The position numbers and the translations under genes are program-made. The notes under the pieces were generated by a model. The model searched no databases. It worked only from the letters and a program-made list of their open reading frames with translations, and was not told where the DNA came from. Below are positions 3,135 through 53,698 of a stretch of DNA of 64,000 nucleotides, piece by piece. The stretch spans positions 241,907 to 305,906 of the forward strand of contig JABHQW010000003.1 in the NCBI GenBank assembly GCA_018696595.1, written 5' to 3'. The DNA is from Candidatus Woesearchaeota archaeon (GTDB taxonomy: Archaea > Nanobdellota > Nanobdellia > Woesearchaeales > GW2011-AR9). The number at the start of each line of letters is the position of its first letter. Position 1 is the stretch's first letter.

Positions 3135-3836
3135 TTACTTCAATAACGTTTCTTTCATTTCTTTGATTTCTTGTTCAGTTACAGCAGAACCATTATACTT
3201 TGCTGCCCACAATACAGAATCTAGTAAAGTGGTTTTACCACCACGCTGTTTAGGCATATAATGATTCAACATTCCAAGTTTGTAAGCCACAGCAACTAAT
3301 TCAATAGAACGAACAATTTTTATATTTTTCAACTGATTACTAAAATCGTTCATTTTATCTTTGTTCACTTGAACATCTTTCTTGAAACGGATTTCTAATA
3401 ACTTTTCCATTTCTTTATTATTCTCAATTAGTAAACGTAAAGTTCTTTCATCCATGACAACAGCAGAAGCATTGGTTTGTAAAGCACAAGTTACTGCTTC
3501 CATTTCTCCAGTTTGAATTATGTCCATGTTTTTGTTTTTTATTTTGAAAGAACTGTTAGCCAAATTTTGTAACTGTTCTACTCTACTTTTAGGAACTTTA
3601 TCATAAACTTCTAATGTCCCATCTCTAATTAGTTTCATAACTTGTAATGCTTCAAATTCAAACCGTTTAATTCCTAATGGTCTTTCAACTAATTCTGTTT
3701 TAACACCGGGAGTAATGTAGAATTTTCCACCAAACTTTTCTTTCAGTTTAGGAAGAATCCAAATCAACCGAGACATAACTAGTGTGATGATCGGTCCTGC
3801 GTCGAAGAATAATGCTTTTTCCATTTTAAACCCCAA
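3135..3836 (-). CDS. Hypothetical protein, possible PIN-like nuclease fold
   Basis: N-terminus FFDAGPIITL resembles the first acidic strand of PIN domains. Otherwise unassigned. Confidence 0.35.
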   Translation of the reverse strand: MGFKMEKALFFDAGPIITLVMSRLIWILPKLKEKFGGKFYITPGVKTELVERPLGIKRFEFEALQVMKLIRDGTLEVYDKVPKSRVEQLQNLANSSFKIKNKNMDIIQTGEMEAVTCALQTNASAVVMDERTLRLLIENNKEMEKLLEIRFKKDVQVNKDKMNDFSNQLKNIKIVRSIELVAVAYKLGMLNHYMPKQRGGKTTLLDSVLWAAKYNGSAVTEQEIKEMKETLLK

Positions 3837-4392
3837 ATAGTTTCAGTGCTAATTCTAACCTTTTTTTTGCTGAGACTGAAACGTAATGTGAATCCATCAC
3901 TTTAGTTCTGCCAGCATATTGTTGTAAGTCCCAATTAGATAAACCCATCAATCCCGCTGCTTGTCCTAATGAAAGACCTTTCTGCAATAAAACCGCTCCT
4001 TTTTTAATTCTGGCTGCATCCATTACATCTTGTAAATGTGTTTTTACTGAAGCGTTTGCACTTCTAACAATCTTAAAAAGAGATTTCACACTTTTATTAT
4101 ATCTAGCAAAATTTCCTTGTTGTAAATGATTTCTAGCAAATTCCAGTTCTGCAATTAAATCTTTATAATTTTCTTCTTTCATTTGCCGAACAACTTTGTA
4201 TATTGAATAAATAAGAACAGTTACTGAAATCAAATCAAGATTTTTGTATAAAGCCACATCTTCTATTGAATGGTCGCTTAAATCTTTCAATTGTTCTACA
4301 TCTTGCAGTTCTCTTTGTTTAAGAATTTCAATAGTCTTAGTCAAATCATTAAGAATCTCTTTCTTTACCTCTCTTCTCATACTTGTTAGCAT
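3826..4392 (-). CDS. Hypothetical protein with C-terminal helix-turn-helix
   Basis: Track ORF extends to 4464, but the first 24 codons are the reverse complement of the palindromic intergenic element at 4440-4514. Start at internal Met (MLTSMRREV) is preferred. C-terminus LSLGQAAGLMGLS looks HTH-like. Confidence 0.4.
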   Translation of the reverse strand: MLTSMRREVKKEILNDLTKTIEILKQRELQDVEQLKDLSDHSIEDVALYKNLDLISVTVLIYSIYKVVRQMKEENYKDLIAELEFARNHLQQGNFARYNKSVKSLFKIVRSANASVKTHLQDVMDAARIKKGAVLLQKGLSLGQAAGLMGLSNWDLQQYAGRTKVMDSHYVSVSAKKRLELALKLFGV

Positions 4393-4439
4393 ATTCTTGG
4401 GTTTTATTAAAGTTTTGGAAAGAAGCCTATACCACAATT

Positions 4440-4514
4440 TTAAGAGCAGCGCCAATGGAGGCACATTTTTTGGCTAAAAGACAAAAAATCTCGGGTGCCG
4501 TGCCCTGCTCTTAA
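4440..4514 (+). ncRNA. Structured intergenic element, copy 1 of a three-copy family (conserved core CGCCAATGGAGGCACAT ... GTGCCGTGCC within a 10-bp outer stem TTAAGAGCAG/CTGCTCTTAA)
   Basis: Perfect outer inverted repeat, inner GGCAC/GTGCC stem, apical hairpin ATTTTTTG..CAAAAAAT. Same core at 36454-36557 and 42948-43015 with different outer stems. Strand unknown. Confidence 0.45.
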
Positions 4515-4585
4515 AATGATTTTATAACCCAAGTAAACAATTGACAGACCAACAAATTTATAACCAATAAAATATTACTTTCTTT

Positions 4586-6317: not shown

Positions 6318-7682
6318 ATGGTTTCTGCAGAAAGAAAGAGACAACAAGCATTAATAAATTATGATCAAACAACAGCTCTTGATTCCTTAGAATCTAAATT
6401 AAGAGCAATAGATATACAAGAAGATTTAGATACAATGGATTTGTCAAGAGAAATAACTTTAGAAGTTGTGCAAATGGAGTTAAGAACACATTTACGACAA
6501 TCATTGACAGAGTTAACTGATATTGGTTGGAAAATGTACCAGGATGATTTAAAACAATTTAATGATGAAGGACAATTAATATTTTATTTCAAGTTAGCAA
6601 ATGAATTATTTATGATCAGTGAATTACATGAAATGGAATTTTCTTATCGTACTGATGAACCATTATTATCAGATTGTAATGTATTAAAAGAAAGATTATT
6701 TCCAAGAGGACCACCTAAAGGAAGTATTGATAGCTTTTTTGAGAGCAGACAAGATGATGTAAAAACTTTGGTCCAAGAATTACAAAGAAATAATTATATC
6801 ACTAAGAAAGCAGCAAGAAAATTAACTCAATTATTAAACCCACTTAGTGCTGAATTAGAAAGAAGAGAAGTGGCTAATATTACTTCAGCGGTAAGCGAAC
6901 TTTTTGATAGTATTTATAGTACAATAGAAACACATACAAAACCAGTACCAAAAAAAAAGACAGTTATTGAAGAAAAAGTTGCAACAGGACCAACTCCAGA
7001 ACAAATTGCTGAAAGTCAAGATGTTTTAATTAATTTCTTTGATTTAAGAGAAGAAATTGCTGACAATTATGCTAACCAATTATCTCAATCAGATATAATT
7101 CATATGTATAGTCAACTAGCCAACACAATTGGTGACGAACCAGCAATAGCAGTTATTAGAGATAATCCAGAAATTTTAACATATGTACAAACTAATCAAT
7201 GGAGTAAATATGTCAGAGCCTTAAGTGTTATCTGTAACGGAACCGGGCAAGAAACAATTGAAAGTTATCCCACAAATGAATATTCCTCTTTAGAAAGAGC
7301 TTTAGAATTAAAACAAAAAGTTAATTCGTTTGCTAATAGTAAAGATACAGCAGAAATAACTGAAGAATTAACAAAACCAGAATTTGAATTATACAGATAT
7401 ACCTTTCTTCATACAGGAAATGAACATGTAAATAGAAGAAGAGAAAGTTTAATTAAAAAAGGAAAAGTAACAGTTACAGACCGAGATCATTGGAATGGAG
7501 GAAGTTCTGGTGCAAGAGGAAATAACATCATCATGAAATTAGATTATGAAATCGGGATTTTGTTTTCAGACTTGGGCTTACCAGAACCTGATTGTAATCC
7601 TAATTTTGGTCAAAGAACATTATCTATTTCTCCACAAGACCAAGCTAACCTAGCAGAAGTTGCTGCTTTATATTGTAAATAA
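6318..7682 (+). CDS. Hypothetical protein (454 aa)
   Basis: Long ORF with coding-like composition, mostly helical N-terminus, no recognisable motif. Confidence 0.45.
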   Translation: MVSAERKRQQALINYDQTTALDSLESKLRAIDIQEDLDTMDLSREITLEVVQMELRTHLRQSLTELTDIGWKMYQDDLKQFNDEGQLIFYFKLANELFMISELHEMEFSYRTDEPLLSDCNVLKERLFPRGPPKGSIDSFFESRQDDVKTLVQELQRNNYITKKAARKLTQLLNPLSAELERREVANITSAVSELFDSIYSTIETHTKPVPKKKTVIEEKVATGPTPEQIAESQDVLINFFDLREEIADNYANQLSQSDIIHMYSQLANTIGDEPAIAVIRDNPEILTYVQTNQWSKYVRALSVICNGTGQETIESYPTNEYSSLERALELKQKVNSFANSKDTAEITEELTKPEFELYRYTFLHTGNEHVNRRRESLIKKGKVTVTDRDHWNGGSSGARGNNIIMKLDYEIGILFSDLGLPEPDCNPNFGQRTLSISPQDQANLAEVAALYCK

Positions 7683-34635: not shown

Positions 34636-35502
34636 ATGGGTTACTTAAAAGCCAAACAATTATTGGTAACTTTAGCTAAAGTTCAAGAGAAAGAAAAAAA
34701 GAACTTTAATAGACTTGAGATCGTTAAAAAGATGAACGAAATAAAATATCTTTCTACACAAAAGAAAGTTCCGCGTTTGACTTTAAGAAAAGAGGTAATT
34801 CATTTAGAAAATAAGATCGAAGGAATTCTAGAACTTGAAGAAGAATTAATGAAGAAAAAGAAACATGAATCAAAAAGAATTGTTTCTTTGAAAAAACAAA
34901 TTACTAATCTGAAGAAAAAGTTAACTGCTTGTCAGGATAAAGATTTAAAGAAAAAGGTTGAAAGATTATCTCACTTATTGGGGGATTTCTTAGCTAAACA
35001 TGGAACTAAAGATGACATTGAGTTAAGTAAAAAAATCTTGAAAGAAATTAAAGTTAAGAAAAGGTTACCTTCAACTAAAGCTAAGAAAATCAAACATGAT
35101 CGACACCCTGTTAAAAGACAAAAAGTTACTGAAGTTTCTATTTTAACTGAACAAGATAAATTAAGGATCAGAAGATTACAATTACGGATGAAGATTCTTA
35201 AACAAGAATTAGACCAAGTTGAAGAAGTTGATTTACAGAAAACTAAATTGTTGGAACAAAGAGTAAGTCTTTTAGAAATGAAGTTAAACGGTTATTACAA
35301 AGAACACCCAGAATTACTTTCTGAAACAATTGTAGAAAAGAAATCTGAAGTGGTTTCTTCGCCGATGGAAGTTAAACATACTTTAATGTTCAATGGTTCT
35401 GAGAGTAAAGAATCTTTATTGCTTGGTGACCATGGCAAATCTATAGAAATTGATTTAGAGAAAGAATTACCTTTACCGCCGCCGCCTAAGATGACTGATT
35501 AG
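34636..35502 (+). CDS. Lys-rich coiled-coil protein
   Basis: 288 aa with heptad-like K/E/L pattern, Pro-rich end LPLPPPPKMTD. Abuts previous gene. Confidence 0.4.
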   Translation: MGYLKAKQLLVTLAKVQEKEKKNFNRLEIVKKMNEIKYLSTQKKVPRLTLRKEVIHLENKIEGILELEEELMKKKKHESKRIVSLKKQITNLKKKLTACQDKDLKKKVERLSHLLGDFLAKHGTKDDIELSKKILKEIKVKKRLPSTKAKKIKHDRHPVKRQKVTEVSILTEQDKLRIRRLQLRMKILKQELDQVEEVDLQKTKLLEQRVSLLEMKLNGYYKEHPELLSETIVEKKSEVVSSPMEVKHTLMFNGSESKESLLLGDHGKSIEIDLEKELPLPPPPKMTD

Positions 35503-36123: not shown

Positions 36124-36261
36124 GCCCCTGTGGCCTAGCGGTATGGCGTTGCATTGGTAAATCTTAACTTAGTTTTCGTTAAGTTCAAAGATGCAGAGAT
36201 CCCGAGTTCAATTTCCGTAAGGGAGTTACAAACCCTTCGTTTGAAAGTCTCGGCAGGGGCT
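36124..36261 (+). tRNA. tRNA-Thr(GGU) with two introns (canonical 37/38 and T-loop)
   Basis: GCCCCTG-TG-GCCT AGCGGTA TGGC-G-TTGCA TTGGTA[~31-nt intron with CTTAAC/GTTAAG hairpin]A TGCAG-AGATC-CCGAG TTCAA[~35-nt intron ...TTTGAAA]GT CTCGG-CAGGGGC-T, followed by T-run terminator. Confidence 0.55.
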
Positions 36262-36263
36262 CT

Positions 36264-36272: not shown

Positions 36273-36306
36273 AATAAACTTTAAAAATAAAACCAACTTC
36301 TAAGCA

Positions 36307-36439
36307 TTGCTTATCTCATTAGGTATAGCTTAGCCCCTTTGTGGGCACTTTGCTTTCCAGTTACCCTTTACAGACCTAGTGCTGTATTTCGGGCCCGGGA
36401 GGATACCTTTTACAACAGCAACCCTTTTGAGATAAGCAA
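36307..36439. ncRNA. Candidate structured RNA closed by a 12-bp terminal helix
   Basis: TTGCTTATCTCA (36307-36318) pairs perfectly with TGAGATAAGCAA (36428-36439). Interior is GC-richer than surroundings (GGGCCCGGGAGG, GCCCC..GGGC hairpin). No ORF. Confidence 0.25.
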
Positions 36440-36453
36440 CTTAATTCTCAACA

Positions 36454-36557
36454 GAAGTAAGTAATATGTCTACTTTGCCAATGGAGGCACATGGCACACT
36501 AATTAAAAAATTTAACAGGTGCCATAATCGTGCCGTGCAAGTTGATATATTACTTCT
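36454..36557 (+). ncRNA. Structured intergenic element, copy 2 of three-copy family
   Basis: Outer stem AGAAGTAAGTAATAT/ATATATTACTTCT, core GCCAATGGAGGCACAT ... GTGCCGTGC, apical hairpin ATGGCAC..GTGCCAT. Confidence 0.45.
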
Positions 36558-36600
36558 AAACAAAAGAAATTCTTATATAACAAACAACTAAACAAATTCC

Positions 36601-42862: not shown

Positions 42863-42947
42863 TTTAAATAAGTAATATCTTAAGGGTATTTATATTTAAC
42901 GTTTTTTGTTAGAGTTAAAATGGTTAGTAACACCAATTTTAAGACAA

Positions 42948-43015
42948 AACACCAGCGGCAATGGAGGCGCATAAATTTACAAAGGAAATTTATCACCGCG
43001 CCGCGCTCTGGTGTT
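42948..43015 (+). ncRNA. Structured intergenic element, copy 3 of three-copy family
   Basis: Outer stem AACACCAGCG/CGCTCTGGTGTT, core GCAATGGAGGCGCAT ... GCGCCGCGC. Inner stem carries compensatory GGCGC/GCGCC relative to GGCAC/GTGCC in copies 1-2. Apical hairpin ATAAATTT..AAATTTAT. Confidence 0.45.
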
Positions 43016-43085
43016 TGCCAAAAATAAAAGTAAAGAAGATAAATATTTTACTTTTTCTCCTTTAAATTTCTTTTATGAAATCTGA

Positions 43086-52630: not shown

Positions 52631-53698
52631 TTAAAAATCAGTCAACTTTTTATCAGAAGAATAATTGATAATTGTCGTATTACCTTCTTTACCAAAAACT
52701 CTTTCTGTAGAAATAAATTTCCCTTCATCTAATTTAACAATTCGACGATGGAAACTTTTATAACTCATTTCACCACCCTTTTTAGTATAAGCATTATATA
52801 AATCACCGATTTTTTGTCCAGAGTTCTCTCGAATTAAATCCAAAATAAGTAACAAATTTGGATCCAAATCTTCTGTTGGTTTAATATGAAAATCATCAAC
52901 TTTCTTAATCGCTTCCGCCACATGAGATAAACTAATCTTTTTGGATGATCTTTCTTCAGCCAAATTACCAGCTTCTTTCATCAAATACAAACCAACACGA
53001 ACATCTTTTGCATTAGTACATTTCTCAACCATTTCCTTAAATGCTTCTTCATCCCAACAATTTTGTACAAAAGCATATTCTCTTCTTTGTTTTAAAATTC
53101 CTGCAATCTCTGTTTCATTATAAGCTCTAAAATTCAAAAATTCAGGATTGAGTCTACTCCTAATCCGTTCATCCATTTCTGAATAAGTATCTCGGTAATT
53201 TGTTAACAAAATAATTGTTTTACGATAAATATCTTCTAAAACAGTATAAAGAAAATCAGTATCTTCTAATTTATCAATCTCATCAAAAATAAAAACCACA
53301 GATTTTTTGTTAAGTTTATCTTTAATCATAGAAAAAAGTTCAGATGTTTTTTTGTTTTGTAAGAATTTGTAACCTAACAATTCACAAACTTTAGAAAAAA
53401 TTTTGAAGGTAGTATTTTCTTTCCAACAGTTAACATAAATTGGAACAACCTCTTCAGTTTCATCTTCCAATTCTCTTAACACGTGTTTACAAGCAGTAGT
53501 CTTTCCAACACCCGGAACACCATAAACAAATAAATTCCTACCATTATGGCCCTGAAGTAAAGGCCGAACAGCAACCGCAAATCTTTGTTGTTCAGTCTCT
53601 CTAAATTTTAGGATCTTTGGTTGAAAATCATAATCTAATACGACCGTATCTCGAAACAAAGTTTCACCACTTTTCAACATATCTTTAAACATAGACAT
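52631..53698 (-). CDS. cdc6: Orc1/Cdc6 replication initiator
   Basis: Walker A YGVPGVGKTT, Walker B FIFDEID, sensor motifs, C-terminal winged helix. Confidence 0.85.
   Translation of the reverse strand: MSMFKDMLKSGETLFRDTVVLDYDFQPKILKFRETEQQRFAVAVRPLLQGHNGRNLFVYGVPGVGKTTACKHVLRELEDETEEVVPIYVNCWKENTTFKIFSKVCELLGYKFLQNKKTSELFSMIKDKLNKKSVVFIFDEIDKLEDTDFLYTVLEDIYRKTIILLTNYRDTYSEMDERIRSRLNPEFLNFRAYNETEIAGILKQRREYAFVQNCWDEEAFKEMVEKCTNAKDVRVGLYLMKEAGNLAEERSSKKISLSHVAEAIKKVDDFHIKPTEDLDPNLLLILDLIRENSGQKIGDLYNAYTKKGGEMSYKSFHRRIVKLDEGKFISTERVFGKEGNTTIINYSSDKKLTDF

Follow-up and report, generated by a model that had tools for sequence, protein, structure and literature searches.

A probable family of mobile, MITE-like fold-back elements in Woesearchaeota-type DPANN archaea

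Results

Three copies of a hairpin repeat in the window

The window, by which we mean the whole 64,000-nucleotide stretch of DNA analysed, comes from a Candidatus Woesearchaeota archaeon, has ~32% G+C and encodes archaeal genes including NurA, topoisomerase IB, ParA, FtsZ, Orc1/Cdc6 and SerRS. Its NurA is the same, residue for residue, as a protein annotated in a Candidatus Woesearchaeota archaeon. An earlier note, made from the letters alone, had marked three intergenic copies of a structured element in it and proposed them as a novel non-coding RNA family. Its coordinates are borne out by pattern, relaxed and covariance-model scans. The copies, at 4441–4513, 36454–36553 and 42947–43016, all lie on the plus strand, are spaced by 32 kb and 6.5 kb, and share the core GCCAATGGAGGCRC...GYGCCGYGC. 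The bipartite pattern GGAGGC-N20-50-GCCGYGC has three matches in the window, all on the plus strand, and none in 100 shuffles; AATGGAGGCRCAT has three exact matches, again on the plus strand in every case. The same three copies, and no fourth, were recovered from the 64 kb by a relaxed scan (≤4 mismatches) and by a covariance model. The features are as follows.

4441–4513, plus strand: copy 1, core 4451–4503; covariance-model score 88.6 bits; inverted repeat I1; fold z = −3.95
36445–36453, no strand: left target-site duplication of copy 2, 9 bp, TTCTCAACA; the relative L237 has a single TACTAAACA
36454–36553, plus strand: copy 2, whole 100-bp fold-back element with subfamily C arms GAAGTAAGTAATATGTC.../...GATATATTAC; model match 36467–36547, 30.9 bits
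36477–36490, plus strand: 5' core of copy 2, GC (pairs with 36537–36538), unpaired CAATGGA, GGCAC (pairs with 36530–36534)
36491–36529, plus strand: apical hairpin of copy 2, A-U closing pair, TGGCAC.../...GTGCCA, then a 4-nt 3' bulge AATC (36526–36529)
36530–36538, plus strand: 3' core of copy 2, GTGCC-GT-GC
36554–36562, no strand: right target-site duplication of copy 2, 9 bp, TTCTAAACA
42947–43016, plus strand: copy 3, core 42957–43006, variant GGCAATGG.../...GCGCCGCGC; 52.0 bits

The interval first flagged for copy 2, 36454–36557, holds for the element as far as 36553, but 36554–36557 belong to the target-site duplication. Copy 1 has weaker outer arms that reach out to 4428–4526.

All three copies share a common fold. 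A variable outer stem leads through a bulged pyrimidine to two G-C pairs, followed by an internal loop, CAAUGGA opposite GU, and the stem GGCRC:GYGCC; the tip is a variable apical hairpin closed by an A-U pair, with a 4–5-nt bulge on its 3' side. Each copy folds better than its own shuffles (z = −3.0 to −5.5), and the arms are, as the note had said, self-complementary and unrelated between copies. They are not 'always perfectly' so, copy 2 having mismatches or bulges. The copies are promoter-proximal, 44–135 nt from the start codons of their neighbours, and the genes downstream of them are mutually unrelated (a YdjM membrane protein, NurA and an HTH regulator). The failure to place the element in a known RNA family is upheld by Rfam 15, which gave no match anywhere in the window at gathering scores and, at permissive thresholds for copies 1 and 2 and the L194 element, only noise (E>0.1) of the miRNA-precursor hairpin type.

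The family in related archaea

In low-GC archaeal MAGs (30–32% GC, with the titles Woesearchaeota, Nanoarchaeota or 'Methanosarcinales'), public scans with the exact core pattern gave 22 clean matches; metagenome contigs gave ~55 more. Chance matches in GC-rich bacterial DNA, ~90 of 115 genome-contig matches and about one third of the metagenome matches, were dropped on GC content and missing flanking pairing. The relatives in low-GC archaeal contigs (Woesearchaeota/Nanoarchaeota) number ~90, and covariance model R1 locates 93 copies across 657 kb of contigs that bear the family, a biased sample. Several single contigs or MAGs carry two or three copies, the window three in 64 kb. Viral contigs yielded no family member; their sole match was a GC-rich chance match, and a viral origin was rejected on this ground. 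Five of the MAGs (L013, L017, L028, L031 and L054) are titled 'uncultured Methanosarcinales archaeon'. They have 30–35% G+C, the same element subfamilies as the Woesearchaeota MAGs and genes 70–80% identical to those of the window, and their titles may be misassignments.

Pairing is conserved throughout the family. Among 79 distinct members, 96.5% of alignment cells pair and 499 are compensatory, double-sided changes occur in 20 of the 24 model pairs, and the covariation score is 0.678, against 0.172 for shuffled alignments and ~0.1 for slid partners. These measures place the fold-back structure beyond doubt and uphold the reported combination of a conserved asymmetric internal loop with pairing-preserving stems. 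The R:Y swap noticed in the inner stem is real (G-C 50, A-U 28 and G-U 1 for that pair among the 79), and the apical stem (helix 3) likewise shows compensatory changes across the family. The columns of the 5' core are invariant or nearly so in the 79 members, a figure partly inflated by the use of the core itself as the search pattern of the public scans. Model-based matches include the core variants CAAGGGA, CAAAGGA and CAAUUGA and a doubly compensated GGGAC:GUCCC, the latter in L149.

Once the flanks were extended in relatives, with boundaries taken from constrained folding, the hairpins proved longer than first seen, from 70 to ~200 nt. The arms pair out to their tips, giving elements of 70–200 bp. 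Arm subfamilies recur across contigs: A, GGCTTCATCCGGAATAAC...TTGTATACTGG; B, GTACGTATTTAGTTAAGTGAGTGAGCAG; C, GTAAGTAATATGTCNGCTTT, which includes window copy 2; D, GAGCACTAC; E, TAGTTGCNGACA; and F, GGTGCTGTCAAGTT. The arms of the window copies look unrelated because the three copies represent three different subfamilies; those of copy 3 (AAACACCAG/CTGGTGTTT) are akin to the arms of the L028, L054 and L149 elements. Termini are unlike between subfamilies (GGCTTCATCCGG, GTACGTATTTAGTT, GTAAGTAATATGTC, TAGTTGCNGACA, GGTGCTGTCAAG), with at most a loose GGCT..GTC.AG / WAGTT likeness, and it is the centre that they have in common. Across the family the core halves lie 27–48 nt apart, and the distance from core to end is ~12–60 nt. 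Gaps between the core halves do not come in multiples of three, which makes the element non-coding, as had been claimed; a small ORF (MEAH...) that joins the core halves in frame in the three window copies was rejected on the same family-wide lengths.

Target-site duplications, empty sites and nested copies

Of 77 elements, 16 have exact 9-bp direct repeats at the base of the hairpin, where the null predicts 0.4 (maximum 4); tolerating one mismatch raises this number to 33, with 5.8 expected. The search took 9-mers ≤8 nt from the hairpin base, and the null paired left and right flanks of different elements. The duplications are AT-rich and unrelated between copies, 9 bp long in subfamily A and ~8 bp in B. 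Two near-identical A copies on one contig (L126 and L174) have unrelated flanks and different duplications.

Comparison of related loci reveals empty sites. L017 has a single TTTTTTTGA where L177 reads TTTTTTTGA + 100 bp + (A)TTTTTTGA; reciprocally, the A element of L017 is absent from L177. The L028 element is absent from L066. For copy 2 the informative relative is L237, with a NurA 92% identical and an upstream region ~95% identical to the window. At this locus L237 reads ...GAGATAAGCAACCTTA-TACTAAACA-AAAGAAATTC..., with exactly 36454–36553 absent, and the window reads ...GCAACTTAA-TTCTCAACA-[36454–36553]-TTCTAAACA-AAAGAAATTC.... Since L237 has a single TACTAAACA where the window has the duplicated sequence, copy 2 is a 100-bp insertion with a 9-bp target-site duplication. 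Judged from this alignment, it is a recent insertion missing from a close relative. Within the window's own species, the element and an upstream intergenic region of the window's length are present in all five contigs shown, the NurA protein occurring in at least 54 data blocks. Neither copy 1 nor copy 3 has a recognisable target duplication, and on that account both may be old insertions.

Elements also occur inside one another. In L194 (3474–3670) and L153 (6020–6230) a complete E-type element on the minus strand holds a B-like plus-strand element in its apical loop. The same nesting, with copies of opposite orientation as in the first two composites, is seen in L118 (~7090–7260), L139 (~3790–3960) and L132 (9376–9560), where the outer copy has the variant core GCAAKAGGYGC...GCRCCGGCAC. 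This variant core also occurs alone and un-nested, in A-type arms, in L032 (4388–4450). Finally, an element in L155 (~955–1025) interrupts an ORF of the arginase/agmatinase family without breaking its frame; translated from the opposite strand, the element adds ~21 residues (…INHLFTGARHDYFSNKKCASIGASVQN…) relative to the orthologue in L121 (4530–4850).

Placement beside genes and promoters

Genes could be called on both sides of 63 elements. All four contexts of upstream and downstream strand are present, (−,+) 24 times, (−,−) 21, (+,+) 14 and (+,−) 4, and the downstream gene is co-oriented with the element in 38 cases and opposed in 25. Start codons of outward-facing neighbours cluster sharply at 38–55 nt from the element edge on both sides; stop codons of inward-facing neighbours lie mostly 0–25 nt away. 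The elements fill what little dispensable DNA a very compact genome has, which may reflect either targeting or the survival of such insertions alone.

Of 33 elements, 9 have a TATA-like box 22–24 nt from the 5' edge, whereas 2 have one at the 3' edge. The 5' boxes stand 5–7 nt beyond the left duplication. On the opposite strand the spacer beside them is purine-rich and BRE-like, and the box is ~25 nt from the neighbour's ATG. On all three counts they are core promoters of neighbouring, largely leaderless genes. A promoter driving the element itself was rejected, the box lying outside the target duplication and fitting the leaderless promoter of a divergent neighbour. No oligo-T terminator was found 3' of the elements.

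Strand bias and the search for a mobilising partner

Conservation in this family runs the reverse of that in ordinary MITEs, whose terminal repeats are the conserved, family-defining part: here the centre is kept and the termini differ between subfamilies. Mismatches are also biased by strand. Read on the plus strand, G:U(T) outnumbers A:C by 34 to 11 in the 24 core-model pairs and by 80 to 48 in the outer arms, from which the plus-strand fold alone seems to be protected. This bias hints at a single-stranded folded form, either ssDNA or RNA. No transposase domain was detected in the 20 window ORFs tested, no long IS-like inverted-repeat pair with duplications (terminal repeats 600–3500 bp apart) in ~720 kb of contigs, and no split-core element in the family-bearing loci (~0.7 Mb).

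Discussion

We interpret the three copies as members of a non-autonomous, mobile, MITE-like fold-back element family of Woesearchaeota-type DPANN archaea, with a probability of roughly 0.85. The note had argued that the element is not a MITE, but target duplications, empty sites, dispersed near-identical copies, nesting and in-frame insertion are MITE hallmarks. Each element is a 70–200-bp inverted repeat inserted through an 8–9-bp staggered cut that generates the target-site duplication, and copies are gained and lost between related genomes, spread to several per genome and nest within each other. They pile up where a compact genome tolerates them, immediately upstream of the BRE/TATA of neighbouring genes and directly after stop codons, with an occasional copy tolerated in frame within a gene or within another copy. 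The fold-back architecture accounts for the hairpin 'structure' and its 'covariation'. Pairing-preserving 'covariation' is what a fold-back mobile element is expected to display, and alone it is no sign of RNA. In a published survey, one Woesearchaea genome, with 105 MITEs per Mb, ranks with the most MITE-dense archaea (PMC11602168). No account of this particular family emerged from the literature searched, which is weak evidence that it is new.

Mobilisation would take place in trans by a transposase, probably of the DDE type given the fixed duplication length. A fixed 8–9-bp duplication is typical of DDE enzymes, and an IS256- or ISL3-like enzyme is a candidate mobiliser. The central module (bulged pyrimidine, GC:GC pairs, CAAUGGA opposite GU, GGCRC:GYGCC, A-U closing pair and 4–5-nt 3' bulge) would be what the mobilising enzyme, or else a host architectural protein, recognises on the folded or extruded strand. 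Recognition of the folded strand is suggested because the spacings between the core halves, and from the core to the ends, are too variable for straight duplex DNA and because mismatches favour the plus-strand fold. This role of the module is much less certain than mobility itself.

A further proposal, which we regard as improbable, is a 'structure-defined' mobile hairpin, in which the central asymmetric loop and stem would be the sole sequence-specific determinant, read on the folded plus strand as ssDNA or RNA. The ends would then be set by the base of the hairpin and not by a terminal sequence, so that each landing of a copy in the middle of another palindrome could exchange or extend its arms. 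Such a mechanism would account for one core being surrounded by unrelated arms, for the lack of a recognisable IS parent, for nested and composite copies whose cores face either way, and for the plus-strand G:U bias, an excess that plain double-stranded cut-and-paste does not predict. If true, it would be a mode of transposition not described for archaea.

An alternative, to which we give little credence, is a family of structured small-RNA genes, perhaps on or derived from mobile DNA, whose functional product would be the plus-strand CAAUGGA hairpin, for instance as a protein-binding RNA. The very strong conservation of pairing, the invariant asymmetric loop (its core having been the search pattern), the excess of G:U over A:C on the plus strand and the double compensatory change in the most conserved stem (GGGAC:GUCCC in L149) would all suit an RNA, as would the TATA-like boxes near the 5' edge. 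Those boxes, however, lie outside the target duplication and are assigned to the divergent neighbour gene, oligo-T is not seen after the elements, and orientation to genes is random; with random orientation and no dedicated promoter found, neither the discrete non-coding RNA gene proposed in the note nor a cis-regulatory RNA is supported. Moreover, the L155 copy is translated within a protein from the opposite strand, the core is on the opposite strand in some nested and variant copies, and the flagged copy itself is a recent insertion absent from a close relative.

It is very unlikely that the elements are instead host-level DNA sites, cruciform or protein-binding, that serve chromosome organisation, replication or transcription insulation and have spread by their usefulness to the host. 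A central motif conserved independently of the arms, siting between divergent promoters and after stop codons, and a variable core-half spacing that fits recognition of a folded or extruded form would agree with such a role. Against it, copies are polymorphic between close relatives, nested in one another and in one case inserted in coding sequence, all of which is selfish-DNA behaviour, and no co-occurring protein was identified. A cis-regulatory leader (a riboswitch or protein-binding 5' UTR element controlling downstream genes), to which the siting of all three window copies upstream of plus-strand genes might point, is effectively refuted by the context statistics, since gene orientation is not fixed (14 (+,+) against 21 (−,−); 38 co-oriented against 25 opposed; all four contexts present), the downstream genes bear no relation to each other, the elements sit on the upstream side of the core promoter and not within the 5' UTR, and the NurA gene of the close relative has no element.

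Comparison with known systems

To return to the mobile fold-back reading, prokaryotic MITEs, such as Correia/NEMIS of Neisseria and the SM1–SM4 elements of Sulfolobus, are the nearest known kind. Like the present family they are 70–200 bp long, non-coding and mostly intergenic, end in inverted repeats, produce target-site duplications of a fixed 8–9 bp, occur many times per genome and differ in insertion sites among relatives. They differ in that here the ends vary and a central asymmetric loop-and-stem module is conserved, the whole element and not the tips alone is self-complementary, mismatches are strand-biased, and no parent IS or transposase was found in the 20 window ORFs or the ~720 kb of loci.

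Nearest in behaviour are the Rickettsia palindromic elements (RPEs), reportedly described by Ogata et al. in 2000. These too are palindromic mobile elements of ~100–150 bp in a small compact genome, intergenic and occasionally in frame within protein genes, as is the L155 copy. The two groups have no sequence relationship and their hosts belong to different domains of life; RPE families are conserved over their full length, and the 8–9-bp duplications seen here are not known to occur in RPEs.

REP/REPIN sequences are moved by RAYT (HUH) transposases, and PATEs are derived from IS200/IS605. Like our elements, these are hairpin repeats, and they are recognised strand-specifically as a folded single strand; recognition of this kind would explain the plus-strand G:T bias and the unpaired motif beside a stem. 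Unlike our elements, they lack target duplications, have conserved stems (with a 5' GTAG in REPs) where ours vary, and come with a RAYT or TnpA gene, none of which occurs among the ORFs tested. The attC sites of integrons (archaeal integrons having reportedly been described by Ghaly et al. in 2022) likewise put structure over sequence, in a folded strand that bears an unpaired spacer and extrahelical bases and has a variable hairpin at its end. Here, in contrast, cassette arrays and a neighbouring integrase are absent, the copies stand 6.5 and 32 kb from one another, the outer ends vary and do not contain GTTRRRY, the outer R box that attC conserves, and the elements carry target-site duplications and move as whole units.

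Several motifs were considered and rejected. A kink-turn, the L7Ae-binding motif, has a 3-nt bulge followed by tandem sheared G.A/A.G pairs between two stems, whereas here CAAUGGA faces GU and the short strand has no GA. The archaeal bulge-helix-bulge cut by the splicing endonuclease has two 3-nt bulges on opposite strands with a 4-bp helix between, as opposed to the 7/2-nt internal loop, 5-bp helix and 4–5-nt bulge found here. The H/ACA pocket, the C/D boxes and a Y-RNA-like stem (GGCUGGUCC opens one subfamily) were dismissed, their hallmarks being missing or not kept from one subfamily to another. CCAATGGA resembles the ORB box of archaeal replication origins, CCAGTGGA; an ORB-box reading was set aside, the copies being scattered over 40 kb and mobile.

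Implications

The analysis removes one false non-coding RNA candidate. Fold-back transposons can take the form of GC-rich hairpins with 'covarying' stems in AT-rich DPANN genomes; for repeats of this sort, 'covariation' must not count as evidence of RNA function. For Woesearchaeota, whose genomes are very small and whose mobile DNA is little characterised, it delimits a probable mobile-element family with a covariance model, subfamilies, duplications and empty sites. Its insertion pattern maps the sites that tolerate insertion, at the BRE/TATA edge, after stop codons and occasionally in frame in genes, and the reversed conservation together with the strand bias offers a lead to how such elements are recognised and moved.

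Other features of the window

A lysine-rich, coiled-coil-like ORF of 288 aa at 34636–35502 (plus strand) matches the protelomerase 'muzzle' domain at E = 0.006, a score that falls short of the Pfam cut-off and is probably noise. At 52631–53698 (minus strand) lies an Orc1/Cdc6-type AAA+ gene (Cdc6_lid, AAA_22), and a replication origin may be located in the adjoining intergenic region. A tRNA gene at 36124–36262 (plus strand), with the acceptor GCCCCTG...CAGGGGC, is apparently interrupted twice, with ~33 extra nt in the anticodon loop and another insert in the T arm. No tRNA was called by ARAGORN anywhere in the window, and the score against the Rfam tRNA model is just 18.6 bits. Similarly interrupted tRNA genes lie upstream of NurA in L237. 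At 36279–36445 (plus strand), a GC-rich region of ~130 nt, closed by the 17-bp stem TTGCTTATCTCATTAGG / CCTTTTGAGATAAGCAA and without an Rfam match, is preceded by a strong TATA-like box, CTTTAAAAATAA. This region, which adjoins the copy 2 insertion site, is ~95% identical in L237 despite diverged nearby sequence and is a candidate for an independent structured RNA or an unusual pre-tRNA.
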